This document shows, one piece after another, positions 23,830 through 52,280 of a stretch of 64,000 nucleotides of DNA; positions within the stretch are counted from its first letter, which is position 1, and the number at the start of each line of letters is the position of its first letter. The stretch is from Dipteris shenzhenensis (lineage: Eukaryota): assembly GCA_047967505.1 (NCBI GenBank), contig CM106538.1; one strand, given 5' to 3'. The notes beneath the pieces were generated by a model. The model saw only the letters and a program-made list of their open reading frames with translations, had not been told where the DNA came from and searched no databases. The translations under genes and the position numbers were made by a program.

Positions 23830-24920
23830 CCTAACTAATAGGCTGCTCTAAGACTGAAGGCTCAGTAGCAAGGTCCTTACTAGTTTGCTCTTCAGTTCCA
23901 AGCACCTGACTAGTAGGCTGCTCTAGAGTCTCATGACCAAGTTCTTGGTAAGTAGGGACCTGGCTACTAGGTTCCTGACTAGTAGGCTGCTCTGGAGTCT
24001 GTAAGGTCATGGTTGAAGAACCATCTATGCCTCCTGGTAACTCCTCCTGGTCATGCTTTGCCTCTTCCATACCTTCTTTGAGTAAGGCTTCCTTGCTTGA
24101 TCCACTTGCCTGTCCTTCACCCAAGATCAATCCACTTGCGTGTCCTTCATCCAAGATCCAAGGGTGCCTTCCTCACTTTTAATTTTAAGGGAAGTGCTTC
24201 CACCTCTTTAGCCTTACCTTTACCTGTGACGTGCTGTACTACTGTAACTTCTTGCTGCCACGAACCTTCCCGTATGATGAGTGGAACCTCCTTGACTCTA
24301 GTTGACAATTGATCACCCTTATTCTTGAAGCTCTAGAGTCCTTAAAGGAGTTTGGATTAGATTACCACCACCCCTCGATAAGAAGCACATTAAGAAAGGC
24401 TGCAAGACTTGAATGGCAGTGCCTTCCAAGACAGTCATATGATTACGCAAGACTATACCATGGTATACTTTTGAAAGTAAATACCCAAATGAAGATGTCA
24501 AACTCGCATATAGGGCATCCCTTTGTGATTCTGTCACGAACAGGACCAACGTTGATCTTTTCTTATCTACCATAGGACCTTCAACAATAAACCGCACAAG
24601 TTCAACTATCCGTGACACTGCAAGGTCTTGCAATTCATCTATGAAAAATACGCATGGCTTCTCCCAAGCATGACCGCTCATTGTTATGAAATGCTCCGTA
24701 TCAATGCCATTGATGTGTGCAAATTTTGTATCATTCTCTGATAGCAGGATATCATAAGAGAAGCTGAATGGAGAACCATCATCTAAACCACCAATTGCTC
24801 TACCTTGGGTACTGGACTGCAAGGTCTTTTTCTTAATGTCCATATATTGTGTCTCAACAACCTTTGGCATTTTAGCTCTTAGATCCTTTGTTGGTGTGGC
24901 ATCTGCATCCATTGAAGCCA
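23830..24920 (-). pseudogene. C-terminal part of the ParB-like gene, continuing in frame across the gypsy insertion
   Basis: Removing the gypsy element and one TSD joins KTWARKW (36674) to LASMDADATPTK (24921) in frame. A further 200 aa follow, then frameshifted pieces lead to an acidic repeat tail at ~23831. Confidence 0.85.
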
Positions 24921-24925
24921 ACCAC

Positions 24926-26039
24926 TGTTGGCTCTTTCCTACCGCTTTCGTAGGAAGAGCTGGGTGTTCTATGTTGCAGGGTTCCGAGGCTTTTTGTCAC
25001 CTACAGATATATTAGGATTGTCGTTGTAGTATATATGTAGCTTAGGACCTCGAGTCATGTTCCGTTGAGAGACTTAGGCTTAAGTGTGGTGAGTAAACAT
25101 AATGCAAGCATGTGTAGAAGGCACGTAAACCATTGTTGTTGGGGTAATGAAGGCTTTCGCCTTCATTGGGGGTTGTAAGGTTTAGGAGGAGTTTAAGGGT
25201 TCAGAAGGAGGTTCCAGGGTTTAGAAAGAGTTCAGGGTTAGAAAGAGTTCCAGGGTTCAGAAGGAGGTTCCAAGGTTTAGAAAGAGTTCAGGGTTAGAAA
25301 GAGTTCCAGGGTTCAGAAGGAGGTTCCAAGGTTTAGAGTAGAGTACATGGTGGAGAACTCGTCTCCCTCGTAGATCATTGAGTTTAAGGGTTTAGGAAAG
25401 TATAGGAGTGGGAGAGGAAGAAGGTGTAAGAGCATGGGTGAAGTAAGAGGGAGAGGAGGAAGGAGGAGGAGGGAAGAGGAGGAGGGAGAGGGAGGAGAGA
25501 GGAGGAGGAGGAGGAGGGAGGAGGAGGGAGGAGGAGGAGGAGGAGGAGGAGGAGGAGGAGGAGGGAGAAGGGAGGAGGAGAGGGAGAGGATGGGTTGCAG
25601 GGTTGGAGGAGAGGGAAGAAGGGTTGCAAGGTTAGGACATGCTTTTGGACGTGCAGTGCAAGGAAGCATGGACACTTGAGACAAATGCTTGGAATACCAA
25701 TGTAGACTCAACACAATGCCCCAAGAGTGTGGGCTTCATTCCATTATGGGGTATTTATACAAGTTGGAGAGCTTCCCTCTCTGCATGTAACACAAAGTCG
25801 TATCACAAAGTTGTAACACAAAGTTGTGTCACAAAGTCGTAACACATTCTCTCTAGAAGATGTAACACAAAGTTGTTACACAAAGTTGTTACACAAAGTT
25901 GTAACATAAACTTGTAACACAAACTTGCAACACAAAGTTGTTACACAAAGTCGTAACATAAAGTTGTGTCTAGAAGTTGTAACACAAAGTTGTAACACCT
26001 TCTCTTTCTTCATAAGTTCATGTTGGCACAGAGTCAACA
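24926..26039 (-). repeat. 3' LTR of gypsy-like element (1114 bp)
   Basis: Near-identical to 35546-36672. Contains ~55-bp GGGTTTAGAAAGAG repeats, (GGA)n and 13-bp ACACAAAGTTGTT repeats. A PPT-like CCGGGGGTA is adjacent at 26040-26048. Confidence 0.97.
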
Positions 26040-26073
26040 TACCCCCGGATCCATTTTATTACCCGTCCTCGGG

Positions 26074-29000
26074 TTATGGCTTATTGCGATCACGTACCTG
26101 GGTTGCCATGTTTTTAGTCCAGTGGCTGTGGAACTTGTGTCGTGCCAGACGGTCCTGCTGTAGAGCCTTAGCACCATACAATTTTTGCGCAGTTTCCAGG
26201 TAGCCTGTATCCACCATTTGCTCGAACAGAGATATGTGGCGTGCCTCCAAGAAGATCACTCTTTGGTATAGTCTGCTTGTAAATCTGAGCATCAATCCGT
26301 TCATTGGGATTAAAGCTGAGTGGAGGCAAATGGGAATCAAGGTAGCAGGGGACTTCCAGAATTAATGCTAATGTTTTGCAGAATATGGCACTTTGGCGAA
26401 GGAAGCGATCAATGTTGCCGCGCATTGTTTGTTCATGCTGCTGAAGTGCTCGGATCATGGCCCCTTGGATAGTCCATTCTACACCAGAGTAGGATTCGAT
26501 CATTGGCCAATTAATGACTCGATCTTCAGCCAAAGTGTGTATGTTGGCTTCCCATCTTTTACGCCGTGGAACTGCATAGAACTTGGGATGGGTTCTGAGA
26601 CATGGAGGTGCCCGTAAGTACTCCTTTAAGAAGCTTACATCAAAGAGCTTGGGACGGCGCCAATCAGGTTGTGGATCCAATTTGCTAATCCAAGCTTCAC
26701 TTATTTGGTGTTGACGAAGATTGGTAGGAAAGTTACCCAGGGTCCATCCACCGCGAGTTTTCATATCAGGATATTTGCTCCAAAATTCCTTGATGGGGTT
26801 ACTGGGAAGTGGTATCTCATCAAAATCATACTCATCATTGGAACTTGGCATGGGTGTACGAATTGGATTATCCGGATCCTGATATTCAAAATCAAATACT
26901 GCATCATTTTCTGCTGATGGCAGCACCAGAAGTGTCGGAGGTGATGACGGGGCCGGGAGAGAAGCAGGGGACATGGGGGAGAAATATGGCTGAGTGATAG
27001 TGGCGGAAGGGGGAGCAGAGGGGAGGGGGGGAAGAAATGGGCAAATGGTTTGAGCAGCTTGGTAATCCTCAAGGGTAGGATTAGCAAGGGAGGGGAAAAA
27101 GCTAGGTGTGAGGGGCTCGTAAGTTTGGGACTGTTGGGTGAGTTGAAAATGGTGAGAGGCATGAGCAAAGAGACGATGGAGGGAATAGATGTTAGGATGA
27201 AGCTCGGGGAAGGTTAAGAGGGTGGCAGCAGCAAGGGGAAGTGAGGTTATGATGTTGGCAGAAAGAGTGGTTAGATATGGGAAGTTGGATGTGAGATAGG
27301 CCTTGTCATCGTCCGACACTTCTTTTTGCTGGTGCGATGGGATGATCAGCTGCATGGGTTGGATGCCCGTTAAGTCATGCCGTGCAAATAATAGGGATGG
27401 CCTTTGCAGCAACGGCAACAAACCTGCAATAACCCTGAGGGGAGGACTACCCATGAGGCAGGCATATGCAATGAAAGCATCTGTCCTGAGAGTTATAAAC
27501 CCGGCATGTGTAGACAGGCAGAAGATATTCTTCTCATCTTCAGACAAGTCTTGGCAAATGATGCGCAGGGTTTTAATCCCGATGGATCGTTTCCAGTCGA
27601 TTGTTGGATGAGCAGCTATGATCTTGAGTTGGAGTTGCTTCCATTGGATCAGCACGCGTGCGTGGAGGTGATCTTCCATTTGGAGAGCAGTCACAAGCTC
27701 TTCATACACCACGGTTGTGCATTGTAGTGGGCCGTCATTGGTGTTGTCTTCCAATGCCTCATTGTTATGCACTAGCAATTGGAGTTCAAGCTTGGAGATG
27801 GCTATTTTTTGGGAGTGCATCTCATTCATCTTTTCTTTGTACTGATGGTAGATGCTGGTGTATGCCTCTTTAAGCTTTTTCATTTGCAAGGTGACCTGAT
27901 GTCTTTAGTGGTATTGGACCATTGGTCCAAGAAGTGGGCTTGTAAAGTGCTGGCCTCTTGAACAGTAGCAAGTTGGTCTTTTAAGAGTCGGCATTCCCTT
28001 GTAAGCTCATCAATGCTAAAGGCACGTACTGCCAAAGATTGTTGCATGTCTTCAAGCTTGTCCTTGCAATCCTGGAGCTCGTCTTCTTTGTGAATGAGAG
28101 TGAGTCGAGCTTGTGCCACTTCCTCTGTTTGTTGCGCATGTGCAGTTGTCAGGGAGTTATAGGAGGTCTGTAGGATTGCCATTGCTTCGACTGCCGCAGT
28201 CAGCTGTGTTTGACTTTGATGGAGGTTGGAGGTCACATCCCTTACGGCCTTCTCTTGAGCTTGGAGAGCCTGGTTCATGCGCACTTCTTCTACCTCCTTC
28301 TCATCTATCTGTGCCCGAAGAGCCTTGACCTCGATGGCGATTGCCTGGAATTGGTCTTCGATTTCTGATGCCGTCTGCCTTTCCAATTCTCTTGCATATG
28401 CTTCCTTAGCCAAGCTAGTGAAGAGTTCGGACATTTGGATCATTTGGCTAGCTTGATGCTGGAGAATGACAGATGGTGATGAGGTCTGGCGATATTGCTG
28501 ATACAAGTGGTGCCCATGTAGCCATCCCGAGGATTCTGTAGTACTTGGGGGAGGTTGTTCCAATGGCATTTCACTCCCTTGTGGACAATAGTCATACTGC
28601 TGATCTGGCACGAGCTCTCCTTGGGGCTCATCGACTGGCATGACGTCGATGGGCGGTTCGAGTGCTGATGTGGTCTCAAGCTCTTCCTCAGGTTCGGGTG
28701 CCAACCTTGTCTCGAGCTCGGGTGGGTGCTGTTGGGGGAGACTTAGTGGTTGCAATTGTGCACCGAGCTGAAGCATTTCCTGAGGCAATTCTACAATCCT
28801 GCTTTCCAGAATAGGTACTTCTGTTAAGGCATCTGTACTTATCAATGTGATAGCTGGAGCAGTTGATGATGGCTCCCATACTGGTGAGAAGGGTATGTCC
28901 AACTCCTCAATTGGCTTTGGAGACTGGGGCAGAGTCATTTCTCTTTGTTGTAGTTCCTTTTTGATGATGATAGCCAATAAGTGCGGAATTTTACATTTCT

Positions 29001-29352
29001 GGCCTGAAGAACCATCGAGTTTTTTGGTAAAGAAAATGACAAAGTGTTGGACCCAGTCTTGTTTGAGCTTCCTACTCAGCAAAACAAATGTGCGGAGTGG
29101 AAGGGAGCGTTCCTTGCCGTTCTTGATTCCCAGGATGGTGGATAGAAATTGTGCTGCTTCCTTGAGGTGAGGGTCAAGGATTGTGCGAAGCAAGATGCCA
29201 TCTCTATGGATCAGGGTACCCTTGGTGAGGAGAGACTGTACTTCGATAAACTTTGCATCCGCAGACCTTTTAGGGTATTCGCCACCTTGCCTTGGCAGAG
29301 AGAAAGCCCTTTGAATGACTGTACTGTCGAGGATAATGTTTAGTGGGCTCTG
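26074..29352 (-). CDS. Unknown accessory region of the gypsy-like element (coiled coil, Pro-rich segment, unknown C-terminal domain), in frameshifted pieces
   Basis: ORFs 27880-29193 (open back to 29352), 26168-27889 and 26074-26340 overlap at short frameshift junctions. No YxDD, RNase H or HHCC/DDE motifs were seen. Confidence 0.7.
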
Positions 29353-32253
29353 CTATACAGTGATTGTACCGTACTTGCCATCTGTTGCATTGCTGGAGTA
29401 GTAAGAGTGGAGAAAGTCCTTGATGTAGGTGGTCATGATAGGACTATCCTCCAAGGATTTGAGGCTCTCATGCAAATTGCCTAGACCCCGTTGCTCTAAG
29501 TAAGATGTTGCTTCCTGGGAAAGAGCATAAGTCGAGGTGGGTGGCCAGACAAGTTCCAATGATTGGGCCTTGTTACCAGTTGTGCACGCCGGCTGTGACT
29601 GGGGTAGCATAGTTGCATTTAGTAATTTGTTAGGCTCTTCTTGCCTTTCTTTTTCTGAAGTCTCTTGATCGAGCTTCATCCGCACATGTGGCTTATATTT
29701 CCGAAACTTCTTACGTTGGGAACTGTGGGGTAACTTTTCCACTGGTAAGGTGTTTCCAAGTAAGGGTTCATGTGCTGCACATACTCCTTCCAGTCCTTCA
29801 GGGGACCATTCAAGAGGTGGTGGTTTTGACTTTGAGGGGACTGCCTTTGTAAGATACAATTCCACAATCCTTGTTTGGACTCGTTCGAATTCATTGAAGT
29901 GCTCGGCCTTGGCTTTTCTGCGATTTCCTCCTGCAGCTTTCTTGCGGGATCTTCTGCTGTTATTCAACTGTGGAGGTTCAATTTTTGGGAGCTCAACTGC
30001 CATTAGGGCATGGAGAATGGCTAGGTCATTATCAAAGATTTGATCTTCAATTTCAGCATTCGCAGCCTCTGTTTCAAGATCCCAAGGAAAATCTGAGTCA
30101 TCATTGGTATGGGTACCTTCTTCAGGTTCATTTTCCCATTCGAGGTCAGCCATAAAGAAAGGCATCTCTACATCGATTTGTTCTTCATGTGTCGGTGGAG
30201 GATCGACCTGTAGTGCGTTAACATCTATCTGTGAGAAGATGGGGTCTAATGAATGGCAGTTGTCGATGGTTGCCAATGTTTGTATCCAGTTATTGACATT
30301 GCTTTGTGAGTCACCTGCTATGGCATGCTGTTGCAAGGGATCTGATTTGCTCGAGATTGTCGTGGAAGATGTGTCATCCAATGCTCTAGGAACAATTGGT
30401 TTAATAACTCCTGTCCCCACATTCACCCTGACTGCAGTATCTCGATTCTGGATTGTCAATCTATTAGTTCCCCAGTCATGGAGGACTGATGCTTCCCGTA
30501 ACCAAGGACGTCCCAGTAAGATTTGATAGGATTTTTTGGGGAGATCCAAGATTGTGAATTGAAGGGAAAAGCGGACTCCTGCGATCTTTGTGGACACGCC
30601 ATTCACTATTCCCAAGGGTTTAGCCCGTGAATCATCGGCAAGGCGTATGTTGAAATTAGCCTTTTGCATTGGTGGAAGACCCCATTCTTCGTAGAGCTCC
30701 TTTGATAGGACATTGACACCTGCTCCACCATCCACTATGGCTTGGACTTCATTATATGCTTTGTGGTTCAAAGGCACAGTGATGTTGCGTATGTCATCTC
30801 TCTCACCCATCCGCACAGGGATATCTTCAATGTCGTTTATAGGTGGAGGGGGATTTGCGAGTTCAATCCATCCTTTGAAACTCTCCCAGAGATTGGGACA
30901 ATTTCGTAAGAGGATTCCGATGGGAATTGACACAGGGCAACTCAGGATGCTTGAGAGTGCAGCTCCTTCAAGTTGACGTGGCGGTACATTCTGTTGTGGA
31001 GTCTGTTGTTGGAACAAAGGCTCGAGTACAGTATCAATACTTTGTGGGGCCAAGTCATGGATTGGGTCTTGAGCTTGTTTCTGAGCCTCAAATTGAGCTT
31101 GTTCATTTTGAACCCATTGCTGAAGTACCTGAAAACGAGCCTTCTCCACCTCTGCATTCGGGAATGGAGCTTCTTGTATTCGAGGCTCGGGAGTGGATGT
31201 GGATGAGCTCGGCTGCTCATTGCTTGGCGGAGGTGGAGGCACTTGTGCTTTCTTTCTCAGAAGTCGCTTCGGTTGGATTGGAATGATAGGGTCCTTCGTG
31301 GCCTCTTTCTGTTGGCGTGTAATTACATTGATAGGTTGTGACCTTAGACTTGCTGGACCCAGACTTTGATGGTCCACCCCAATGATGCCGATGGGGACGT
31401 CAGGCTTAACCTCTGTTTGTTCTGGGACCTTATTTTTCATGGGACAATCCATACAGGCATGTCCTATGCCACAATCTCTGCAAAGTGGTTGGAAAGTAGC
31501 TGGGCTACCGCGATGAGGGCACTCTGCAATTCTATGATTTTCTCCACAACCGTAACACTTGATTGGTGCGCGAAATGTGTTGGGTCGCACTTGATTTGCA
31601 TAGACTGGTATTAGACCCTCTGCACCTTCTACATAGTACACTGGGTACTCTGCTTCATACTCAAATAGCGAGTCTACTTCCTCGGCTTGTAATTGATGTA
31701 TGGGAACTGCCGGAGGAGCTGGATTTGGTGCTCTTGGATACGGTCGTGGATTTGGATTCCTGAGTAGTTGTGGGACTTGTGTCCGAACGGGAACAGGATT
31801 TAGCCTCGGAGCTGGGGGGGCTTGTGCAAGTGCCGGTTGCCTGTATACTGGCATGGGTGCCGCTTGGTATTGTGGTGGTCGAGGCGGATTGTTGCGCATG
31901 TTGAAGATACAACTGGTCTCATCATGGCCGCCGACGACACAGATATGGCACCACAACCGTGGCGGTGGATTTGCTTGTGCATTGATTCTTGCTCTTAGGA
32001 TTGGGCATTCATTTGCTGTATGATTTGCCAAGCAGTGTGGGCACCAGACATTTTCTCGCCGTGGATATGTTTGAGTTGGCGGCTGAGACAAGTGAAGTTT
32101 TTGATCCATGGCCTGCATCATATCTTCTTTCAGCTTCAAGGTCATGGCCTCGAGGCGATCTTCATTGGATGTTTCGGCAATGTCCTTTGATTTACCTTTT
32201 TTCGAGTGCTTATCTCGTGTATTGGACCTGGCATCATCACTGCTAGTGTCTAG
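29353..32253 (-). CDS. Gag C-terminal part with 4 CCHC knuckles, retroviral-type aspartic protease and unknown extension
   Basis: 930-aa ORF, open upstream to 32253. Knuckles are CPHCLANHTANEC, CHICVVGGHDETSC, CYGCGENHRIAEC and CRDCGIGHACMDC. The protease motif AIVDGGAGVNVL...ILLGRPWL lies at ~30500-30740. Confidence 0.9.
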   Translation of the reverse strand, partial: LDTSSDDARSNTRDKHSKKGKSKDIAETSNEDRLEAMTLKLKEDMMQAMDQKLHLSQPPTQTYPRRENVWCPHCLANHTANECPILRARINAQANPPPRLWCHICVVGGHDETSCIFNMRNNPPRPPQYQAAPMPVYRQPALAQAPPAPRLNPVPVRTQVPQLLRNPNPRPYPRAPNPAPPAVPIHQLQAEEVDSLFEYEAEYPVYYVEGAEGLIPVYANQVRPNTFRAPIKCYGCGENHRIAECPHRGSPATFQPLCRDCGIGHACMDCPMKNKVPEQTEVKPDVPIGIIGVDHQSLGPASLRSQPINVITRQQKEATKDPIIPIQPKRLLRKKAQVPPPPPSNEQPSSSTSTPEPRIQEAPFPNAEVEKARFQVLQQWVQNEQAQFEAQKQAQDPIHDLAPQSIDTVLEPLFQQQTPQQNVPPRQLEGAALSSILSCPVSIPIGILLRNCPNLWESFKGWIELANPPPPINDIEDIPVRMGERDDIRNITVPLNHKAYNEVQAIVDGGAGVNVLSKELYEEWGLPPMQKANFNIRLADDSRAKPLGIVNGVSTKIAGVRFSLQFTILDLPKKSYQILLGRPWLREASVLHDWGTNRLTIQNRDTAVRVNVGTGVIKPIVPRALDDTSSTTISSKSDPLQQHAIAGDSQSNVNNWIQTLATIDNCHSLDPIFSQIDVNALQVDPPPTHEEQIDVEMPFFMADLEWENEPEEGTHTNDDSDFPWDLETEAANAEIEDQIFDNDLAILHALMAVELPKIEPPQLNNSRRSRKKAAGGNRRKAKAEHFNEFERVQTRIVELYLTKAVPSKSKPPPLEWSPEGLEGVCAAHEPLLGNTLPVEKLPHSSQRKKFRKYKPHVRMKLDQETSEKERQEEPNKLLNATMLPQSQPACTTGNKAQSLELVWPPTSTYALSQEATSYLEQRGLGNLHESLKSLEDSPIMTTYIKDFLHSYYSSNATDGKYGTITV

Positions 32254-32986
32254 TCATGCCATCTTCGATGTCAATGGCTGCCGCATGAGCAGCACTGAAT
32301 GTTTCATAGCTACTTATCTTTTTCATCTCCTTGCGGATTTTCTTTCTGAGGCCTGCTATGAACCATGCCGTGAGGTGCTTTGCATCTGGGCGTGGGTCAC
32401 ATTTGGCGATCAATCTCTTCATCTTTCCCAGGTATGTGCGTACATCTTCCCTCCGGCCTTGTTCGATCTTGCTGAGTTGGAGAGCGGGATCATCTTGTAG
32501 CCTTTCCGTTTGAAAGCGACGTTTGAATTCGGTTTGAAGTAGGTCCCATGTGGCACGTTCTTCCACAAGAAGGTCGAGGTACCATTCTGACGCCTCATCA
32601 GTTAAGGCCATTGGAAACCAAGCCACCTTAGTTTCATGGGATTGATCACCACCTGCTCGACATGCGGCATCAAAATGTTGGAGGAAGCGAGCAGGGTCTC
32701 CCCTACCATTATATTTGGGAAGTTCCAGTTTTCCCAAGGGGCGTCGGCCGTGATTGTTGTGATTTCGTCGATTGAAGAAGTTGTCAGCCTCGGCATCGAG
32801 CTCGATGTCCCCATCATGCTCAGGACGGCGTCCAGCCATGTTGGGGCGTGGAGGAGTTAAAGGAAGTTGTTGAATTTCAGGGGGGAATTCGGGGTAGAGG
32901 ATTGGCAGGGGCAATTGTTGCAGTGGAGTAAGTTGCGGATTGGGCGAGCGTTGGAGTCGAAGTCGTTGGCCGGAACGTAACTGCAT
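32243..32986 (-). CDS. Retrotransposon Gag capsid domain
   Basis: MQLRSG start, then LPKYNGRGDP..FLQHF, LTDEASEWY, TWDLLQTEFKRRF, QGRREDVRTY and FIAGLR: the Retrotrans_gag pattern. Confidence 0.92.
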   Translation of the reverse strand: MQLRSGQRLRLQRSPNPQLTPLQQLPLPILYPEFPPEIQQLPLTPPRPNMAGRRPEHDGDIELDAEADNFFNRRNHNNHGRRPLGKLELPKYNGRGDPARFLQHFDAACRAGGDQSHETKVAWFPMALTDEASEWYLDLLVEERATWDLLQTEFKRRFQTERLQDDPALQLSKIEQGRREDVRTYLGKMKRLIAKCDPRPDAKHLTAWFIAGLRKKIRKEMKKISSYETFSAAHAAAIDIEDGMTRH

Positions 32987-33439
32987 GCAGATGGTGCGTG
33001 ATTTGCCAAGGGGATCGCTACCCCAAGGGTGGGCGTGGAGGTGGTGTCGTTAGGAGAGTTAGAGTGATGTTAACATGTGTAGGGACCGTCGTGTTAATAA
33101 TGTGCCTAGGATTGTCCTACGTGTGTAGGGAAATGTGATGGTGCAGACGGATCGTTAATCGGAGGTCGCGGCGTGAAAATACGAGTGAATTAATGTAAAA
33201 TGAGGCCCACACGGGGGCGCGAACGAACGTGTGCTAGGGATGCCGAAATGGTGTGCAATGGGTTGGAAAAATACCCCGTAACGTGGTGTTTCCGTGTGTG
33301 AAATCTGGGTTCAAACGGGGTTCAATTTGGGTCCCAAACGGATGAGTTTCGAGGGGTTTAAGGAGGGGTAAATTTGGCGTTTGGGGGGTCCTAATGGTGG
33401 TGTGAATGGACTTTAAGTCCAACCGAGGGGTTGAAACCA

Positions 33440-33730
33440 AGTGACTCTAGTTAGAGTAACTAACCTAGATCCTCCCAGTTACTGTAACTGGGAGGTTTAA
33501 CTAACTGTAGTTAGATACTAACTGTAGTTAGATACTAACCTAACTGAGGGCTAACTAAACTAACCTAGCCTCAAGTACTACTAACCTAACCTACGTAGCT
33601 AATCTAACTGAGGTTAACTAGCTAACCTAGGGTTAACTAACCTAACCTAACTGTAGTTAGTACTAACCTAACTGTGGTTAAACTAACCGTAGAGTTAATG
33701 TTAGGTTAGGGTTAGTTTGGTTAGGTTTAG
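33440..33730. repeat. Low-complexity CTAAC/GTTAG repeat block in the gypsy 5' internal region
   Basis: Dense ctaac, taact and gttag units in both orientations. Confidence 0.8.
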
Positions 33731-33949
33731 TTTTTTTTTTTTTTTTTTAATGTGGGGGGGGGCTGCCCGACGGCGGTGCCCGGAGAGAGGGGGGGGGGGG
33801 GGGGGTTGGTTTGACGCGGCGGGGGGAACGGGGGAGGGCGAGGGGGGTGCGAGGGGGGTTGCGAAGGGGAGGGCGAGGGGGGTGCAAGGGGGGGTGCGAG
33901 GGGGTTTGCGCGGGCGGGGGGCGCGGGGCGGGGTAGGCGGGGGCGGGGC

Positions 33950-34205
33950 GGGGTAGTTAGCGGGGCGGCGTCGCGGTCGCCGCGGGCGGCGGCCGGTGGC
34001 GCGCGAGGGCGGCCGGTGGTGCCGGCGCCGGGACGGGGTAGTTAGCGGGGCGGCGTCGCGGTCGCCGCGGGCGGTGGCCGGTGGCGCGCGAGGGCGGCCG
34101 GTGGTGCCGGCGCCGGGACGGGGTAGTTAGCGGGGCGGCGTCGCGGTCGCCGCGGGCGGTGGCCGGTGGCGCGCGAGGGCGGCCGGTGGTGCCGGCGCCG
34201 GGACG
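33950..34205. repeat. GC-rich tandem repeat (~85-bp unit, ~3 copies)
   Basis: ggggtagttagcggggcggcgtcgcggtcgccgcgggcgg..ggccggtggcgcgcgagggcggccggtggtgccggcgccgggac at ~33950, ~34035 and ~34120. Confidence 0.9.
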
Positions 34206-35525
34206 GAGGGCGCGGCGCAGGTGGGCGCTGCGGCGCGCCACCGCCGGCGGAGGCGCTGCGGGGGCGCCTCTGTTGGGCGCCGCCGCGGTGCCGTGAGCGG
34301 GGGCGGGCGGGGCTGGGGGGTTGGGGCTGGGGGTGGCGGGCGGTTAGAGATAGGGGGTGGGGTAAGGGGGAGGGGGTAAGGGGGAGAAAGAGTAGAGGGG
34401 GGGTTAGGGGGTGGAGGGGTCGGGGGTAAGGGGGAGGGGGTAAGGGGGAGAAAGAGTAGAGGGGGGGTTAGGGGGTGGAGGGGTCGAGGGTAAGGGGGAG
34501 GGGGTAAGGGGGAGAAAGAGGAGAGAGTGAGAGAGAGAGGGGGTGGGAGAGAGAGAAGAGAGAGAGAGGGAAAAAAGGGGAGTGGAGAGGGAAAGGAGAG
34601 AGAAGGTGGAGGGGGAGGTGAAGATGGAGGGGGAGGGGGGAGGTGGTGGAGGGGGAGATGAAGGGGGAGGGGGAGAGGGGGAAGGTGGTGGTGAGGGGGA
34701 GGGGGAGAGGGGGAGGTGGTGGTGGAGGGGGAGGGGGAGATGAGAGGAGAGGATGGTGGTGGAGGGGGGAAGGGGGTGGTGGAGGGGGAGATGAAGAGGG
34801 AAGGGGAGGTGGAGGTGGAGGTGAAGAGGGAGGGGGAGATGGTGGTGGAGATGGAGGGGGAAGGGGGAAGAAAGAGGGAAACAAACTTGAAAGACTGAAA
34901 TCGAAAAGCAGGGAGAGGTGATCACCTGATCGCTCTCCAAGTCTTTCTCGATGTAACGGGATTGTCGCGGAACAATGGACGGTGGGTGGAAGGCTAGGTC
35001 ATCGCTGCGAGAAGGGCTCGATGACACTTACATGGCGAGGATAGGAGTAAGGGGGCGGTCGATGGAGAGGGAGGAGTGTCTTGCGTGGGGCTCGGAAGGT
35101 GGAAGAGAATGGAGGCAAAAAGTGAAAGATGAAGAATGAGGGGGGTGGAGTAGGTTTTTATAGGTTTGGATTTTAGGTTTAGGGTTTAGGTTTAGGGTTT
35201 AACCCTAAACTCTTCCCGAGCCATAACTCTTTATGGAGAGCTCGGTTTGCCTTTCTGTAAAAAGGTAAAATGATCATAATTGAAAGCTCTACACAACCGT
35301 GTCCACTACCTAGCCTAATTGTACATCATGTGGCTTTTATTTAAGAAATTAAGAAAAATTCTTAAGGCAGTAACCCAAAGTGGATGTTTGGGGTTGATAT
35401 GTTTGGCTAGATTTGGATAAATTTTTACTCTCCTTGCCCTTGAGTGGTATGTGCATGAAAGTTTGAAGTAGTGACTTGTTTTACACCTACCTACGCATGT
35501 TTACTCGCTACTTGAGACGCTAGTC

Positions 35526-35543
35526 TCCCCGGCAGCGGCGCCA
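35526..35543 (-). promoter_or_regulatory. Primer-binding site, Athila-like (tRNA-Asp type)
   Basis: Minus strand reads TGGCGCCGCTGCCGGGGA, 2 nt inside the 5' LTR end. This is one mismatch from the Athila-type TGGCGCCGTTGCCGGGGA. Confidence 0.85.
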
Positions 35544-35545
35544 AA

Positions 35546-36672
35546 TGTTGGCTCTTTCCTACCGCTTTCGTAGGAAGAGCTGGGTGTTCTATGTTGCAGG
35601 GTTCCGAGGCTTTTTGTCACCTATAGATATATTAGGATTGTCGTTGTAGTATATATGTAGCTTAGGACCTCGAGTCGTGTTCCGTTGAGAGACGTAGGCT
35701 TAAGTGTGGTGAGTAAACATAATGCAAGCATGTGTAGAAGGCACGTAAACCATTGTTGTTGGGGTAATGAAGGCTTTCGCCTTCATTGGGGGTTGTAAGG
35801 TTTAGGAGGAGTTTAAGGGTTCAGAAGGAGGTTCCAGGGTTTAGAAAGAGTTCAGGGTTAGAAAGAGTTCCAGGGTTCAGAAGGAGGTTCCAAGGTTTAG
35901 AAAGAGTTCAGGGTTAGAAAGAGTTCCAGGGTTCAGAAGGAGGTTCCAGGGTTTAGAGTAGAGTACATGGTGGAGAACTCGTCTCCCTCGTAGATCATTG
36001 AGTTTAAGGGTTTAGGAAAGTATAGGAGTGGGAGAGGAAGAAGGTGTAAGAGCATGGGTGAAGTAAGAGGGAGAGGAGGAAGGAGGAGGAGGGAAGAGGA
36101 GGAGGGAGAGGGAGGAGAGAGGAGGAGGAGGAGGAGGGAGGAGGAGGGAGGAGGAGGAGGAGGAGGAGGAGGAGGAGGAGGAGGGAGAAGGGAGGAGGAG
36201 AGGGAGAGGATGGGTTGCAGGGTTGGAGGAGAGGGAAGAAGGGTTGCAAGGTTAGGACATGCTTTTGGACGTGCAGTCCAAGGAAGCATGGACACTTGAG
36301 ACAAATGCTTGGAATACCAATGTAGACTCAACACAATGCCCCAAGAGTGTGGGCTTCATTCCATTATGGGGTATTTATACAAGTTGGAGAGCTTCCCTCT
36401 CTGCATGTAACACAAAGTCGTATCACAAAGTTGTAACACAAAGTTGTGTCACAAAGTCGTAACACATTCTCTCTAGAAGATGTAACACAAAGTTGTTACA
36501 CAAAGTTGTTACACAAAGTTGTTACACAAAGTTGTAACATAAACTTGTAATACAAACTTGCAACACAAAGTTGTTACACAAAGTCGTAACATAAAGTTGT
36601 GTCTAGAAGTTGTAACACAAAGTTGTAACACCTTCTCTTTCTTCATAAGTTCATGTTGGCACAGAGTCAACA
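35546..36672 (-). repeat. 5' LTR of gypsy-like element (1127 bp)
   Basis: Partner of 24926-26039, with one extra 13-bp unit. Minus-strand TATAAAT at 36373-36379. Confidence 0.97.
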
Positions 36673-38593
36673 ACCACTTTCTAGCCCATGTCTTATCAAG
36701 GAGTTGACCTAGGCTAAGTGCTTTCTTCTTATCCACATCAATTGACTTGCCAGCTAACTCATCATCAAATTTCAATAAAAATAATAGTGCCGAGAGAGCA
36801 GCCTCACTTTGAATCATTCAGGTGACCACTTCATCTAAGTTGCTATGCTTGCTCTTCTTTCCAAAGAAGCAGTCACCACTTAGGATCTTCTTGCATACTT
36901 CTTCTATTATTGCATCTGGAACAAACCTTAAAGCTCTCCACCAAACAATAGACATCGGTTTCTTTATTTCTTTCCTCTGAGTTGCAATGTGCTCTGGTGC
37001 CTCAAAGGATATCTTTCCTATTTCATATGCTTGGCAAACATCCACGATGCTCTGAAACACTGAGTCCTCACAGAAGACAATGCAGGTAACATCCCTGTAT
37101 CTTGCAACGGCGGTGTTCAAATCCTTTGCCTCAACCTTATTACCTGGTATGCCTTGCGTATTGCTTACAACACCTTTCAAGCATCTATAGAACCGAGTCC
37201 TCTTTGCCATGTACTCCGATGTAGGTCTCCTGCCCTTCACTGTTTGTGGCTTTCCACAGCCCATCCATAACTCCCTTGCCTTTATCAAGATCTCAGAAAG
37301 AGAAGAGCTTTTTTTCAACCTAAATGAAGCAGAATTCAGCCTCTCTGATTCTAGAATGTACTTCGAGTCATCATTAAATATGCATATATGACAAATGACT
37401 CGTTGGAACTTTTCCATCCACTCAATCTGTGGCAAGTTTCCTTTTCTTCCCTCATCAAGGGCGATCCTGCAAGCCTCACAAAAGTGTTTCCCATCAATGG
37501 GCTCAAACCTGCATCTTTCTAAGAATCTATTCTTTGCCAGCATGTATCTTTTCTCGATGTCACTCCCATATCGGCTTTGGTACAAAGCCTCTCCATGAAC
37601 AAAGTCACTCCTTCTAAAGTTCTCAAAAGCATCAAGAAAGTCCACGCGCTTTTGAAATGTGACATCAGGCAATGTAGGATCATCTTCTTGAAGTCTCTTA
37701 AACGCCATAGGATGAAGAGTGATATTAGTGGCAACGGGAGTTCTCGTTTTCCTTGTATCTTCATACAATTTGTGTGCAAATATCTTATCGAGCTTTCTTT
37801 GATTTGTGAACAATGAAGCTCGATCAATAAGCATTGTGGCCAGGCTGAATTGTGAAAATCCCCAAATGTATCCCTCATCCTCTGGAGGATGTAAGTCCGC
37901 CACACTTATAGAAAAGTCTTCGAGACTTGTATCTTCTTCTTGCTGATCTTTCTCTTCATCGCTATCCAATTTTTCACCTGGTTTTAAATAGCCTGCACTT
38001 GAGCGATCTCCATGTGGAGTAGGAGTTATTTTTGCTCTCTTTCTGGGAATAGCTATAGCACTTGAGTCTGCTCCACGATCACTCCTTCTTGTTCCTGTAG
38101 TTGCAGCGGTCGATGGCGTAGGTACAGTTGGAGATACTGTAGTTACACTTGTTGGAGTTACCGGAGTTACCGCCACAGATATTGATGGTACTTGAGGGTT
38201 ATATGTTATAGATGGCATACTTAGTGCTGCTGAAGGTTCAACACCACCACTTGGAAATGCATCCCACATTTTCTTCAATGCTTCTAAGGCATTAAGTAAT
38301 TCTTGGGATCCCTCAATTGAACCTAGTAATGGCTTCAAGAAGTGCTTCGGAGTAACTCGTAACTTGTAAACCACCTCGTCATTCTTTCCTTGGCACACAA
38401 TTTCTATCAAATTGTTTTCTTTAATATTGATGTTTGATACCATGCCACCATTTCTTACTGCCTCTGCAGAATATTTCGGGCTTGATATGTTCTCTGAAGT
38501 GATCACCAAAAAATACTTTGATTTGCGCTCCATAAAATACCAAGCATGCTCAATGTATTTGAAAGACACCTTGGAACCAAAACTGGAAGCCAT
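36673..38593 (-). pseudogene. N-terminal ~640 codons of a large protein with ParB/Srx (DGQHR-like) motif pattern
   Basis: 601-aa ORF with a likely ATG at 38593 after an acceptor-like TTTTTCAG at 38609. There is a single TGA at 36818-36820, then the frame continues to the TSD. Motifs NQRKLD...FEPIDGKHFCEAC...VICHICIF..D...ESERLN lie at ~37330-37860. Confidence 0.75.
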
Positions 38594-38844
38594 GGAAGCT
38601 ATAGTTTTCTGAAAAACAATCAAAAATAAAAAATGAGAAATACAATGATTTTCAAACTCAAAATATTAAATAATTTTTAATTAAATATTCTTTTAAGTTT
38701 TATTTATTTTTAATTTTTAAAATAAAATATTTTTTTCTTTTTTAATTATTTTATTTTAATTAATTAGTTTATTTTTATATTTAAAATTTAATTTAATTTT
38801 TTGATTTTTTTTAAGTTTTATTTATTTTAACTTTTTTAATTTTG

Positions 38845-40467
38845 ACGGGACAGGACGAAGGAAAGCGCGGGGAAGGGGGAGTGGGGGGAGCGAGAGGAGA
38901 CGACGGTGGGGACGAGGAGGGGGCGTGGGGCAAGGGAGAGATGGAGGGGGCTCGGGCGGGGAGGGGGAGGCGGAGGGGCATTGCTGCCCCGTAACAGGTG
39001 AGCCCCTCCCCCTCCCCGCTCGCACTCCCTCCCCTTGCCCCACGCCCCCTTACCCTCCCATGCCCACCCCTTGCCCGCCACCTTGTGATGTCCCCCTCCC
39101 CGCCCCTCGCCCGGCCCCTTGCCCTCCCCATGCCCACCTCTTCCCTCAGCCCGCCCCGTGGGGGATCCCCACCTGTTGCGCACGTAACAGATGTCCTCCC
39201 CTCGCCCGCCCCCTTGCCCTCCCTGCCCCTCGCCCGCCCCACGGCCCCCTTCCATCCGCCCACCCCCTTCCTCTCCCCATGCCCCCCCTTCCCTTCCCCT
39301 TGCCCCCTGTTGCGCACGCAATAGGTGAGGGGGGCATCACCCCCCTCCCCGCCCCCCTCGCTCGCTTGCCCTCCCCATGCCCCCCTCCCCTTCCCCCTCC
39401 CCCCCTCCCCTCGCCCGCCACCCCTCCCCTCGTCCTCGCCCGCCCCCTCGCCCCTCCTCCCCCTTGCCCCTCCCCCTCACCCTCGCTCGCCCCCTCGCCC
39501 GCTTGCCCGCCCCCCCTCCCCTTCCCCCTCCCCTCGCCCTCGCCCGCCCCTTCGCCCCTCCTCCCCCCATCCCCCCCCCTCCCCCTTGCCCCTCCCCCCC
39601 ACGCCCTCCACCCCACGCCCCCCCTCGCCCCCCATGCCCCCCCCGCCCTCCGCCCGCCCCCCCCTCACCCCCCCCTTCCCTTGCCCCTCCCCTTCCCTCA
39701 CCACACGCCCCCCCTCGCCCCCCCTTCCCTTGCCCCTCCCCTTCCATCACCACATGTGGTGAGGGAAGGGGAGGGGCAAGGGAAGGGGGGGGCGAGGGGG
39801 GGGGCGGGCGGCACGTGGTGAGGGAAGGGGAGGGGCAAGGGAAGGCGGGGCGAGGGGGGGCGGGCGGAGGGCGAGCGGGGGGGGAGGGGAGGTGGGCGAG
39901 GGGCGGGGAGGGGAGGGGGGCATCGCGGGTGCATCGCCCCCCTCCCCCCCCTCCCCTCGCCTGCCCCCTCCCCTCGCCCTCGCCCCCCCTCCCCTTCCCG
40001 CGCTCCCCCCACACCCCCCCCTTCCCTCTGCCCCCCCAGCCCCCCCCCCCGCGCGCCTGTCCCCCCCCTTCCCTCTGCCCCCCCAACCCCCCCCCCCGCG
40101 CGCCCGCCCCCCCTCCCCTCCGCCCTCCCCACACCCCCCCCAGTGCACCCGCCCCCTTCCGTCGACGGCAAGGGGCGGGCGTGGGGGGGCGTGGGGAGGC
40201 AGCGGAGGGAAGGGGGGGCGGAGGGGTCGACGGTAGGGGGCAGGGGGCAGGGGCGGGGGGGGCATGGGGAGGGCGGGAGGGAAGGGGGGGGCATGGGGAG
40301 GGCGGAGGGGGGGGGCGGAGGGGAGGGAAGGGGGAGGGACGACAAGGAGGGGGAGGGCGGAGGGAGGGGGGCAGAGGGAAGGGGGGAGCGACGACAAGCG
40401 GCAGGGGGGAGGGAAGGAAGGGGGCAGGAGGAGGGAAGGAGGAGGGAGCAGGCAAGGGGAAGGGGCC
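38845..40467. repeat. Extremely GC-rich alternating G-rich/C-rich foldback region
   Basis: C-rich and G-rich blocks are mutually complementary around the palindromic centres TCACCACATGTGGTGA (~39747-39762) and CCGTCGACGG (~40159-40168). Confidence 0.9.
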
Positions 40468-43400
40468 TATGAAGATTGTGGGAGAGAGGGAAGGAGTCTC
40501 ACTTGCGGCTTTCTCACATGCACAATGGGGGAATACACACAAAGGTGGAGGCTAAAAACAGTTTTCCTCTTCTTAGTTGTGAAAGCCAAAAGAACTCTTG
40601 TACAAAAAAATAGAAGAACCCTATATGTGGGTCTCAAAACCAAACTCAACTAACTAAGGTGGCATACTAACTGAGCCACGAACTAGTGTAGATAAGGATA
40701 GCTGTCATCCAGCTATTATTCGTGGGCGGTGTACCAACCGCATCTCCAGTAACAAGTCGGTGACATAAATGCACAACAGTCACCCTGGCATATCGCGAGT
40801 GGAGCTCGATATCTCAACACTCCCCCTCGAGCTCAATCCCAATTCCTGCACACCAAGCAGGTCTCTGAACTTGTGTAGCTTCTCTGCGCCCAATGCTTTC
40901 GTGAATATGTCAGCTACCTGATCCTCTGTGCTAACATAAACTAGATCAATAAGACCTAGTAAAACCTTCTCCCGCACATAGTGATAATGCACCTCAATGT
41001 GCTTTGTTCTAGCATGAAAGACTGGGTTCTTTGCTAAGTGTATGCTGCTCATGTTGTCACAATAAATGACAACTGGCCCATCTGTAGACTGATGCATATC
41101 ATAGAGTAGCTTATGCAACCAAGCTACCTCACATGCAGCCATTGCTGCACCTCTGTACTCAGCCTCTGTGCTCGACAAGGAAACTGTAGGATGTTTCTTG
41201 CTACTCCAAGTGACTGCAGCACTCCCAAAAGAGAACACATATCCACTGGTACATCGCCTATCAGAAATACTACCAGCCCAATCAGCATCAGTGTATCCAT
41301 GCAACTGTATCTGAACCCCAGCCTCATAAAATAGTCCATACTGCAATGTGGACTTCACATACCTGAGTATGCGTCTAGCCGCATCCAAATGCGGTTTCCT
41401 TGGAGCCTGCATAAACTAACTTACCAACCCAACAACATAAAGCTCAAATCTGGCCTGGTAATAGTCATGTAAATCAAACTTCCTACTATGCGTCTGTACA
41501 TAGTAGGGTCTTCCAGAAGCTCACTTGCATCTGTGCTCAGCTTCACATTCTGCTCCAAAGGAACTGAAATAGGCTTACAGCCTGTCATCCCATATTTGGA
41601 CAGCATGTCCAATCCATACTGCCTCTGCAAGATCTGTATCCCACTTGGTGATCTAATCACCTCAATGCCCAAGAAATAACGCAGCTCTCCCAAATCCTTC
41701 ATCTCAAACTTCTGCCTCAATAGCATTTTCACATGAAGGATATCTTCATCACTATCACCTGTGATGATCAAATCATCAACATAAATGACCAGCAGCATAA
41801 TCCCTTTCTCTGTTTTTCTCACATAGAGTGAGAAATCTGCCTTGGAAATCTGAAAGCCAATAGTGACAAGATACTGTCATATCTTGTCAGACCATGCTCT
41901 AGGTGCTTGCTTCAAGCCATACAAGGCTTTCTTCAACCTGCAAACAAACTCAGGATGAGTAGCATGAACATAACCTGTTAGCTGCTCCATAAAGACCTCT
42001 TCTTGCAAATCACCATGCAAGAAGGCATTCTTTACATCCATCTGATGTAAAGACCATCCCTTTGATGCAGCCATAGCAATGGCTGCTCTTACGGTTGCCA
42101 TCCTTGCAACTGGGCTAAAAGTTTCTTCATAATCAATGCCATATGTCTGTGCATACCCCTTGACAACTAATCTTGCCTTGTATCTATTCACAGAACCATC
42201 TGCATTGTGCTTGATCTTATAAACCCACTTACAACCAATTGCATTCTTGCCTTTAGGTAAAGGCACCAATTCCCATGTAGCATTAGCATCCAAGGCATCC
42301 ATTTCTTCATCCATGGCTTTCTCCCATTTTTCTTTTCCCATGGCTTGCTCAAAAGAAGTGGGTTCTTGTTCCTGTATCACTTTGACCATATAGGCATAGT
42401 GAATGGCTGTAAATCCATCATATTTTAGCCTATCCACAAGATACCTAACCCTGGTAGACCTGCGCAAAATAGGCTCACTTCCAGGTGCTCTCAAAACATC
42501 CCTGGTCTTCCTTACTCCAGGTGTAACAACAGAAGGAATACCCAACTCATCATCAATGCTCTATTCTGAGCCACTGGATTCACCATCCACACAAGAGTGA
42601 CCTGCATTCACATCAAACATGGGCTGATCTACCTTCTCTTTCCCTTTTCGTGATACCTGCGTACCACTCTCTGCACTCCTTTGAGGGGATTCTCCTGATC
42701 TCAATCTGCCTGTCCATGGCGAAGTATGTGAACCACTGGTAGAGGACACTCCAGGTCCACTGATATTTTGTGATTGCTGCTGTGCATTCTGTGCAGCATT
42801 ACCATTTTGTGCATCTACATTAATCATCACATTTACTGGTTTATACCAGCTGCTCATCTCATCAAAAACAACATCTTTGCTCACTGTGAACTTACGTGTA
42901 GAAGGGTCATAGCATCTATACCCTTTCTGCTGAGCAGAGAATAACCAATAAAGACGCACTTCTCAGCTTTTGGATCCAACTTGGACCTCAACTCATCTGG
43001 CACATGGACATAGGCAATGCAACCAAAAATCTTCAAATGAGAAATATTTGGTTTCCTACCAGTATACACCTCCTCTGGCGTCATGCCATGTATTGCTGCA
43101 GTGGGAGTCCTATTCATTATATAGACTGCTATAGCAACTGCTCCAATAATAATCTGGTAGATCTTTTTCATTTAGCATAGCCCAAGATACCTCTCCAATA
43201 TGCCTGTTTTTTCTTTCTGCAATTCCATTTTGCTGTGGGGTATGACTGCATGAATATTGCTGCTTTATACCATGCTCCTGCAAGAACCTTGCAAACTCAT
43301 TTGAGAGGTACTCTCCCCCTCCATCTGACCTTAGGCATTTTATTTGCAGGCCTGTTTCTTTTTCAACCATAGCTTTGAAAGCTTTGAAGTGCCCAAACAC

Positions 43401-47149: not shown

Positions 47150-47904
47150 TAACCTCCATATGTATGCTCGTGAGACAACAAAAAGAGACCTGGCAACCCA
47201 AAAATGATAGCACATTGATGCGCTGCCATTTTTGGGCTACCAGGCCTCTCTTTTAATGTCTCCTGAACATAAGAACAAGCACTTGTGTTCCTTACCTTTC
47301 TTTCCAATGGGGGTCTTGATTTTGGGGGTGTATGCCAAAAATTGATAAACAACATTATTTGCATATAGCTTTATTAAATCGATAAAATAGGCATGAAAAC
47401 ATCTAAATTGGCTCTTGCCATTTGATTTGATGTATGACATGAGCCCATTTGGATTTGTAATTCCAAAGATACGGGGTCTTACTTTTAGGGCTTGAATGCC
47501 TGAAATAGGCAGCGTGTCAATGCGCTGCCTATTTCATACATTTAGGCCTCAAAAGTAGGACCCCATGTAGGACCAAATGAGGTCCTACTTTTGGGGCCTA
47601 AATACATGAAATGGGTAGCACATTGACAAGCTACCTATTTTAGGGATTCAGGCCCTAAAAGTAGGACCCCGTATCTTTGGACTTACAAATCCCAATGGGA
47701 TCATGTCCTATATCAAATCGAACGGCAAGAGCCAATTTTTATGGTTTTCATGCCTATTTTCTCCATCAATCAAAACTGTATGAATAAATATATACATCAA
47801 GATATGCATCAATATATGCATCAATATATACATATGTATGTATGTATGTATATATATATATATATACATACATACATACATACATACATGTGTGTGTATA
47901 CACA

Positions 47905-47952
<48 letters not shown>

Positions 47953-48454
47953 CACATATAGATATATATGTATGTATATACATACATATATACATACAAC
48001 AAAATGGGGGTCTTGATTTTGGGGGGGGGTATGCTAAAAATTGATAAACAACATTATTTGATGAATATAGTTTTAGTTGATGGAGAAAATGGACATGAAA
48101 ACCATCTAAATTGGATCTTGCCATTCGATTTGATATATGACATGACCCCACTCGGATATACAAGTCCAAAGATACAGGGTGCTACTTTTAGGGTCTGAAT
48201 GCCTAAAATAAGCGGCGCGTTAACACGCTGCCTATTTCATGCATTTACGCCTCAAAAGTAGGACCCCATTGGCAACTTTCAGGCATTCAGTCCCTAAAAG
48301 TAGGACCCCGTATCTTTGGACTTACAAATCTAAATGGGGTCATGTCATATATCAAATCAAACCCAATTTAGATGATTTTCATGTCCATTTTCTCCATATA
48401 TCAAAATTCTATGCATCAATATATACATCAATATATACATATATGCATCAACAT

Positions 48455-48534
<80 letters not shown>

Positions 48535-49219
48535 CTGTATGTATGTACGTATGTATGTATGTATGTATGTATGTATGTACATGCATATATATACATACAT
48601 ACATACATACAAACATCAAAAGTAAGACCCCATTGGTTTCCCATGTCATGCATTTTGTTGTCTCATGAGCATAAGAACAAGCACTTGTGTTCTTTACCTT
48701 TCTTTGCAATGGGGGTCTTGATTTTGGGGGGGTATGCCAAAAATTAATCAATAACATTATTTGATGAATATAGTTTTAGTTGATGGAGAAAATGGACATG
48801 AAAACCATCTAAAGTGGATCTTGCTGTTCGATTTGATATATGACATGACCCCATTTGGATATGCAAGTCCACCAAAGATAGGGGTACTACTTTTAGGGCC
48901 TGAATGCCTAAAATAGGCAGCGCGTTAACGCGCTCCCTATTTCATGCATTTAGGCCTCAAAAGTAGGACCCCATTGTGTTGCCAATGGGGTCCTACTTTT
49001 GAGGCCTAAATGCATGAAATAGGCAGCGCGTTAACGCGCTGCCTATTTCAGGCATTCAGGCCCTAAAAGTAGGACCCCGTATCTTTGGACTTACAAATCC
49101 AAATGGGGTCATGTTATATATCAAATCAAACGGCAAGAGCCAGTTTAGATGATATTCATGTCCATTTTCTCCATATATCAAAATTGTATGCATCAATATA
49201 TACATATATACATCAACAT

Positions 49220-49270
<51 letters not shown>

Positions 49271-49936: not shown

Positions 49937-50004
<68 letters not shown>

Positions 50005-50665: not shown

Positions 50666-50722
<57 letters not shown>

Positions 50723-51384: not shown

Positions 51385-51427
<43 letters not shown>

Positions 51428-52199: not shown

Positions 52200-52280
<81 letters not shown>

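Follow-up and report, generated by a model that had tools for sequence, protein, structure and literature searches.

The canonical ParB CTPase clamp has a box I with the sequence QPR, a box III with the sequence ENxxR, a central helix-turn-helix and a C-terminal dimerisation domain. The Arg residue of the GERR motif in ParB, like that of the GCHR motif in sulfiredoxin (Srx), contacts the triphosphate. With the exception of sulfiredoxin, this fold is considered to be essentially confined to prokaryotes. In a 2025 survey (PMC12704722), EukProt was searched with PF02195 at the gathering cut-off; Srx is named there as the most frequent form in eukaryotes, and the same survey describes orphan ParB-fold proteins as being frequently located on mobile elements. 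The DGQHR domain, as it is introduced in PMC4619093, is defined by a QR pair, the near-invariant pentapeptide DGQHR and the sequence FxxxN. The signature of sulfiredoxin is FG/SGCHR, with the catalytic Cys (PMC4619093, Table 2).

The window analysed here, a stretch of 64,000 nt of DNA from Dipteris shenzhenensis, contains a frame of 615 codons between two stops on its minus strand (36818..38665). Counted from the first ATG, the open reading frame (ORF P0001, 36821..38593) encodes 591 amino acids, slightly fewer than the 601 given in a preliminary description of this DNA, and it is intact, without an intron-like break. The frame is closed by a TGA codon (36818..36820), and an ATG follows directly in the same frame. 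The parts of the protein, the continuation of its frame and the adjacent LTR retroelement described below are on the minus strand as well. The product of the ORF is a member of a small eukaryotic family of fixed architecture that was previously unclassified. We find it rather likely that this is a new, divergent family with the ParB/Srx fold and a conserved pocket that lacks the Arg residue.

A search through 1.84 billion representative proteins, with the program HMMER, finds 23 relatives with E values of 1e-3 or below, with 7 at or below 1e-10 and 3 at or below 1e-30. The relatives form two groups, plant-type and distant. The plant-type relatives share 40–90% sequence identity with P0001 and are all short fragments of 40–177 residues; one of them, among the ten relatives whose records were looked up, is a hypothetical protein (KAJ7540859.1) from the lycophyte Diphasiastrum complanatum. 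The distant relatives have 21–29% identity over 200–340 residues. Single ORFs of 1097–1488 residues, on ENA, JGI and Logan contigs, are included in this group, and the contigs of the four long relatives that were looked up are 3.9–6.2 kb in length.

Other searches contributed few additional members. A word-index protein search with residues 1–420 of a long relative (P0014) gives three more of the distant relatives, and a search of this type with the family profile gives two short fragments. With P0001 itself, no relatives are found among 7,999 candidates. In JGI metagenome contigs, there are 60 pattern matches for the family alignment and 46 for P0001, with none confirmed as a related locus in either case, and none of the 24 pattern matches for the alignment in IMG/VR is confirmed.

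The overall plan of the protein, common to the family alignments, consists of an N-terminal domain, a low-complexity linker, the domain that carries the motifs and a helical region. The N-terminal conserved domain (residues 8–113, 38255..38572) is β-rich in a low-confidence model based on the single sequence. Its homology to the long relatives is significant, as residues 1–120 of P0001 score 31.5 bits against a profile of the N-termini of five long relatives (E = 7e-12, for one target). In the alignments, the sequence EHAWY in this domain of P0001 is located where the long relatives carry HGWW. The linker (residues 114–240, 37874..38254) is rich in Ser, Pro and Thr (18, 16 and 15, respectively, of 127 residues) and is predicted to be disordered, with pLDDT values below 50 in the single-sequence model. 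It contains a basic patch, PRKRAK (residues 183–188, 38030..38047), which we take to be NLS-like, and an acidic run at residues 210–226. Next is the domain with the predicted ParB/Srx fold (residues 241–427, 37313..37873; residues 17–203 of the model described below). The C-terminal region (residues 428–575, 36869..37312) is all-helical and has Lys438, Arg440, Trp443, Gly447, Pro449, Cys520 and Cys567 as conserved residues.

A further C-terminal module is found in the long relatives only. A methyltransferase-like nature of this module (W.[FV]DCR ... RWN..F.LPP ...) was considered and dropped, as it is supported neither by Pfam at E ≤ 10 nor by a profile search of the PDB. Nine longer relatives were compared with Pfam and have no match at E ≤ 0.01.

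The structure of residues 225–591 was predicted with AlphaFold2, in the absence of templates, from an alignment of 27 rows with these residues of P0001 as the first row. The model has a mean pLDDT of 82.4 and a pTM of 0.77, and over model residues 21–180 the pLDDT is 82–96 in most of the 10-residue blocks. AlphaFold2 gives a mean pLDDT of 37.1 when it is run without an alignment. The model contains a compact α/β core, with a strand leading into a Gly-containing turn and a helix, as in the ParB/Srx fold superfamily, where the nucleotide pocket is formed by these elements. A comparison with the PDB, with the program Foldseek, finds ParB-family chains in 7 of the best 10 rows, with pNOB8 ParB-N at the top (E = 0.031). 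Among the best 10 rows from BFVD, all seven that have a name are ParB/Spo0J, ParB-like nuclease or GmrSD-N (best E value 3.5e-3). No match in the PDB or BFVD has an E value of 1e-3 or below. The ParB/Srx fold, which the preliminary description had proposed from the motifs, is the clear best match of this confident, template-free model, and on this basis the domain very likely has that fold.

A look-up of residues 233–470 by protein-language-model features places ParB_N clusters in 5 of the 30 listed matches (score 0.90).

The alignment behind the model is shallow (27 rows, with Neff of about 3). The prediction might therefore have drifted to a common α/β arrangement, in which case the likeness to ParB/Srx would be an artefact and the DGxH, QR and Asn motifs would be coincidental. 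The motifs are kept in the relatives, and thus they are not due to chance. We consider such an artefact very unlikely.

The five motifs that had been noticed in this protein are all present in the one ORF and in the order described. They span positions 37334–37804, inside the region of 37330–37860 that had been assigned to them. The first motif is NQRKLDKIFAHKLYE (residues 264–278, 37760..37804), followed by NITLHP (residues 290–295, 37709..37726), RFEPIDGKHFCEACR (residues 362–376, 37466..37510), VICHICIFNDD (residues 399–409, 37367..37399) and YILESERLN (residues 412–420, 37334..37360). In the model, TNQR is located after the first strands and ITLHP is on the second strand. The CRFEP strand leads into DGKH and then into a helix, followed by the VICHICIF strand and the YILESERLN helix. 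A three-helix insertion (residues 316–358, 37520..37648; H92-109, H111-118 and H122-134 in the model) is located between strand 2 and the DGxH strand.

Conservation of the residues was counted in the 27 aligned sequences of the family, where the total for a column is the number of rows that extend over it. The TNQR motif contains the QR pair (residues 263–266, 37796..37807). Asn264 is found in 14 of 14 sequences and Arg266 in 12 of 14, and position 265 is Gln in 10 and His in 4 of the 14. Leu293 and Pro295 in the second motif are present in all sequences (13/13 each). Glu364 and Pro365 (16/17 each) lie just before DGKH (residues 367–370, 37484..37495), which is positioned at the turn from strand E137-141 to helix H145-159 of the model. 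This motif is DGQH in the family, with Asp at 367 in 14 of 16 sequences, Gly at 368 in 15 of 17, Gln at 369 in 15 of 18 and His at 370 in 17 of 18; Lys369 is unique to P0001. The preliminary description had made its proposal dependent on the conservation of DGxH among homologs, and the motif is indeed conserved. Ala374 (16/18) and Cys375 (18/18) follow a few residues later. In the last motif, Tyr412 and Ser416 are found in 17 and 18 of 20 sequences, respectively. Asn420 (37334..37336), at the end of the YILESERLN helix, is invariant (20/20), and it sits on the helix after strand 4 in the model. In the helical region, Lys438 and Arg440 are conserved in 16 of 18 sequences each, and Trp443 in all 18.

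The Arg residue expected after the His is Phe371 in P0001, as had been noted before, and the replacement extends through the family: position 371 is Ile in 9, Phe in 4 and Val in 4 of 17 sequences, and Arg in none. As judged from these aligned sequences, the loss of this Arg is a trait of the family and not a private mutation of P0001. The family keeps, at the level of sequence, the QR pair, DGQH and the invariant Asn, with a hydrophobic residue in place of the Arg of DGQHR, GERR and GCHR.

Searches at the level of sequence and profile do not detect a known family of this fold. When 22 or 27 members were compared with Pfam, NCBIfam, PADLOC and PHROGs at E ≤ 10, none of the families ParB_N, DndB, DUF262 and Srx appeared among the matches. 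P0001 alone has a noise match in Pfam (Med3, E = 0.55) and finds mucin-2 only among the PDB sequences (E = 2.3), and profile searches of the PDB with the family find nothing relevant. The family profile was also aligned, with the program hhalign, to 29 chromosomal ParBs gathered with PF02195. With the whole domain, this alignment has a probability of 0.03%, and once the columns of the insertion are left out it has one of 0.2% (E = 0.29), neither of which is significant. A co-linear register appears only in the second case, that is, without the columns of the three-helix insertion, and it is illustrative. In this non-significant register, TNQ-R is placed on QPR (ParB box I), LRPI on QPIlVR and EPvDGQH on EIIAGERR.

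As no sequence or profile method detects ParB, membership of the superfamily rests on the predicted structure and the order of the motifs. The assignment to a ParB/Srx type made in the preliminary description stands in these two respects, whereas ParB_N, DndB and DUF262 are not seen by sequence or profile methods. Surveys of the kind described above would miss this family, since it does not match PF02195 at E ≤ 10.

Among the known systems, the place of DGKH/DGQH is taken by GERR in ParB, by GCHR in Srx and by DGQHR in DndB. The motif grammar of the family looks nearest to that of the DGQHR domain, and its shape looks closest to those of the ParB-CTPase domains. In the descriptions of PMC4619093, DGQHR/DndB (TIGR03187, PF14072) and DUF262/GmrS (DGQQR) have the same order of motifs, with QR, DGQH at a strand-helix turn and Asn on the next helix. 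DGQHR/DndB and the P0001 family would both have the ParB/Srx fold, which is predicted in the case of the family. The pentapeptide DGQHR by which PMC4619093 defines the domain is absent from the family, with Arg in 0 of 17 sequences. The Asn of the FxxxN sequence in that definition is found in 20 of 20 sequences, but the residue four positions before it is Ser (18/20) rather than Phe.

The canonical ParB clamp (TIGR00180) has GERRxRA where the family has DGQH[I/V/F]xxAC, with His at the position of the first Arg in 17 of 18 sequences and a hydrophobic residue at that of the second in 17 of 17. ParB_N (PF02195), which includes ParB/Spo0J, Noc, KorB, PadC and pNOB8 ParB, has no match in the family even at E ≤ 10, and the canonical N-domains of ParB are without the three-helix insertion of 43 residues. 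In contrast to ParB, P0001 has a eukaryotic host, its linker is NLS-like and its N-terminal domain is unrelated; neither a motif for ParA binding nor parS nor a domain for C-terminal dimerisation was identified. At the position of the catalytic Cys of sulfiredoxin, the family has Gln in 15 of 18 sequences and P0001 has Lys. P0001 is also a multi-domain protein of at least 591 residues, for which a peroxiredoxin context is not known.

On the evidence of the predicted structure, the family is a separate, very divergent eukaryotic branch of the ParB/Srx superfamily, outside ParB_N, DndB, DUF262 and Srx. A plant-like genome and eukaryote-like assemblies would thus contain a ParB-like protein that has several domains and is probably nuclear.

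The pocket of this domain would be formed by three elements in the canonical order, TN[Q/H]R, [W/F]EP[V/I]DGQH and the invariant Asn on the next helix. The conservation of all three elements suggests that selection still acts on this pocket as a ligand site, and we give even chances to its being functional in this role. The family appears to have replaced the phosphate-contacting Arg after the His by a hydrophobic residue. Loss of the Arg that contacts the triphosphate suggests a change of ligand or of chemistry, and the chemistry could be altered or reduced to binding only. As the most likely mechanism, we envisage a nuclear protein whose pocket would hold a phosphorylated ligand, either a nucleotide or another compound. 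Binding of this ligand would control self-association and/or DNA binding of the protein, in the manner of the orphan ParB-like proteins of bacterial mobile elements. Whether the protein binds DNA is evenly balanced in our estimate, and an NTP as the ligand is possible but somewhat doubtful. The nucleotide binding or DNA sliding that had been suggested for this protein is an inference; no member of the family carries a counterpart to the second Arg in GERR. The conserved, arginine-less pocket would be a natural test case for the abilities of the fold without that residue.

The ORF adjoins an LTR retroelement (24926..36672) that is outside the gene and contains gag and aspartyl protease (Pfam). 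The LTRs of this element (24926–26043 and 35546–36675) are 98.2% identical over 1131 nt and have TG..CA ends, and a 5-bp target-site duplication (ACCAC) is found at 24921–24925 and 36673–36677. The stop codon of the ORF is 141 bp outside this duplication, which places the ORF beyond the limits of the element. The target-site duplication and the LTR ends thus rule out that it is an accessory ORF belonging to the LTR element, for example one located upstream of gag. After the nested elements had been removed computationally, the ORF was seen to have neither inverted nor direct terminal repeats around it, and the only similarity to emerge was that of a GC-rich tract to itself. A tblastn search of the window with all family members has the ORF locus as the sole match. 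The suggestion that the module had been recruited by a plant transposon is thus not borne out, as the ORF is outside the LTR element, has no terminal repeats and is present as one copy in the window.

The family as a whole belongs to, or derives from, a selfish element with a probability that we put at about one half. The dense transposable elements in the window and the fact that the plant-type relatives are all fragments lean toward such an origin, as do the distant relatives, which are long intronless ORFs and are located on short contigs where these were looked up, and the frequent occurrence of orphan ParBs on mobile elements (PMC12704722). The single copy in the window, the lack of termini and the position outside the neighboring element lean against membership in a transposon.

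P0001 could instead be a host nuclear gene, domesticated or ordinary, in which the ParB/Srx domain serves as a small-molecule enzyme module and not as a DNA clamp or a mobile-element protein. Sulfiredoxin, SerK and SbnI, which carry out ATP-dependent phosphotransfer, would be the models for such a module. We consider this unlikely, and a nuclear ParB-like protein with an altered ligand pocket remains our preferred reading.

The reading frame remains open after the TGA codon. In a reconstruction of the empty site, with the LTR element and one copy of the duplication removed, it is open for 248 codons past the TGA (36817 to 24322). This continuation consists of two parts, in the same frame as the ORF (36678..36817 and 24322..24925), which are split by the insertion of the LTR element. 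The family profile has a match to it at the expected downstream position, which is weak (−1.9 bits, a score reached by 6 of 500 shuffles). The continuation has no Pfam match, and a search of the window for the C-terminal extension of the long relatives gives nothing at E ≤ 0.01 and noise only at E ≤ 50. In the simplest reading, an originally longer ORF would have gained a stop codon and would later have been hit by the LTR retroelement. The copy in the window is probably truncated. Alternatively, the TGA may be a natural stop that precedes a second cistron, or it may be read through.

A stronger version of truncation is that the family is real but the copy in the window is a dead remnant, inactivated by a nonsense TGA and then by disruption with the LTR retrotransposon, such that nothing functional is made from it. 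The long open frame past the TGA, obtained when the insertion is removed, is what would be expected of such a remnant, and the distant long relatives read through the corresponding region in the alignment, with the insertion lying 141 bp downstream of the stop codon. On the other hand, the 591 codons are intact and every residue conserved in the family is kept, except for Q369K. The first codon after the TGA is ATG, which would fit a natural stop or a second cistron, and the continuation has weak homology with the family. A dead copy is therefore a possibility that we take seriously without favoring it. As far as the family is concerned, this does not conflict with our preferred explanation: the copy in the window may be dead, with the family and its arginine-less DGQH pocket being real.

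By language-model features alone, the nearest named family is DUF3723 (PF12520), which is eukaryotic and linked to mobile elements according to the account in PMC9156397. Clusters of fungal DUF3723 are first in the look-up with the whole of P0001 (0.90, 128 shared features). In the same kind of look-up with residues 233–470, they account for 13 of the 30 listed matches (0.93–0.94, 155–168 shared features), beside a basidiomycete cluster (0.94, 172 shared features). HMMER finds no match to PF12520 at E ≤ 10 in any of the 22 or 27 members. In the relevant passages of PMC9156397, PMC11162782 and a 2026 preprint, DUF3723 is presented as a signature auxiliary gene of the fungal Starship giant transposons, with its function unknown. 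A literature search found nothing joining DUF3723 with ParB and nothing for ParB Srx with eukaryotes, and the publications containing both Starship and ParB are unrelated by their titles and the starts of their abstracts.

It is conceivable, although in our view improbable, that the P0001 family and DUF3723 are homologous. The two would then make up a eukaryote-wide class of ParB-like proteins of mobile elements, which would parallel in the nucleus the orphan ParBs found in plasmids and phages. With a remodelled, arginine-less DGQH pocket, these proteins would bind and handle DNA of the element itself, for example to tether or segregate it or to protect an excised copy. Such homology, if true, would provide a first mechanistic hypothesis for DUF3723, and it would mean that the ParB fold serves eukaryotes in DNA transactions and not only in sulfiredoxin. 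The role of a signature gene of the Starship giant transposons would be touched on as well.

The window in general is a graveyard of plant-type transposons, with ORFs for copia-type gag, integrase and RVT_2 in addition to the gag/aspartyl-protease element (Pfam). On the other side of the ORF from this element, there is an AT-rich stretch, then a GC-rich low-complexity tract of 1.7 kb and then the LTR of a copia copy. No RNA run is present among the sequencing runs listed with this DNA, which counts neither way on expression. Two sequencing runs contain it partially (shares of 0.25 and 0.14), and the second of these is labelled as an algae metagenome.

The N-terminal domain of the window protein (P0001), residues 8–113, is encoded on the minus strand at positions 38255–38572. 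It is conserved between P0001 and its distant relatives (31.5 bits), has neither a family nor a structure match, and appears to be β-rich in a low-confidence model. The long distant relatives P0010, P0014, P0025 and P0032 share an extra C-terminal module (columns ~990–1200 of their alignment, A6), which is absent from P0001. This module contains the conserved motifs W.[FV]DCR, RWN..F.LPP and P..W, and no match to it was found in Pfam or among PDB sequences.

The TGA that ends the ORF of P0001 (36818–36820, minus strand) is immediately followed by an ATG. With the LTR insertion taken out, the ORF's frame continues beyond the TGA for 248 more sense codons, at 36817–36678 and then 24925–24322 on the minus strand. 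This continuation could mean that a nonsense mutation shortened an originally longer ORF, that the stop is read through, or that the downstream codons form a second cistron.

The LTR element itself (24926–36672, minus strand) is 11.7 kb in length, with LTRs that are 98.2% identical and a target-site duplication of ACCAC. Its gag is located at 32243–33049, and its aspartyl protease sits in an ORF of 966 residues. Reverse transcriptase, RNase H and integrase were not found in the element with Pfam, even at E ≤ 1. Two more ORFs, of 490 and 578 residues (26168–29352), have no family and only weak coiled-coil matches. The element may be non-autonomous, or a carrier of unknown ORFs.

GC-rich, strand-skewed low-complexity tracts flank the P0001 ORF upstream (38805–40555) and, in similar form, lie within the LTR element (33830–34870). 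They consist of hexamer-like repeats, G/A-rich or C/T-rich, and on both strands give rise to spurious long ORFs with a high content of Pro, Gly and Arg.

The window also holds two copia-type copies with a mutual identity of 95–96%, one on the plus strand (12061–17458) and the other on the minus strand (40470–44097 and 56431–58396). The minus-strand copy is divided by an insertion of ~12 kb, within which lies a tandem array (47251–52498) of ~720-bp units containing inverted segments.
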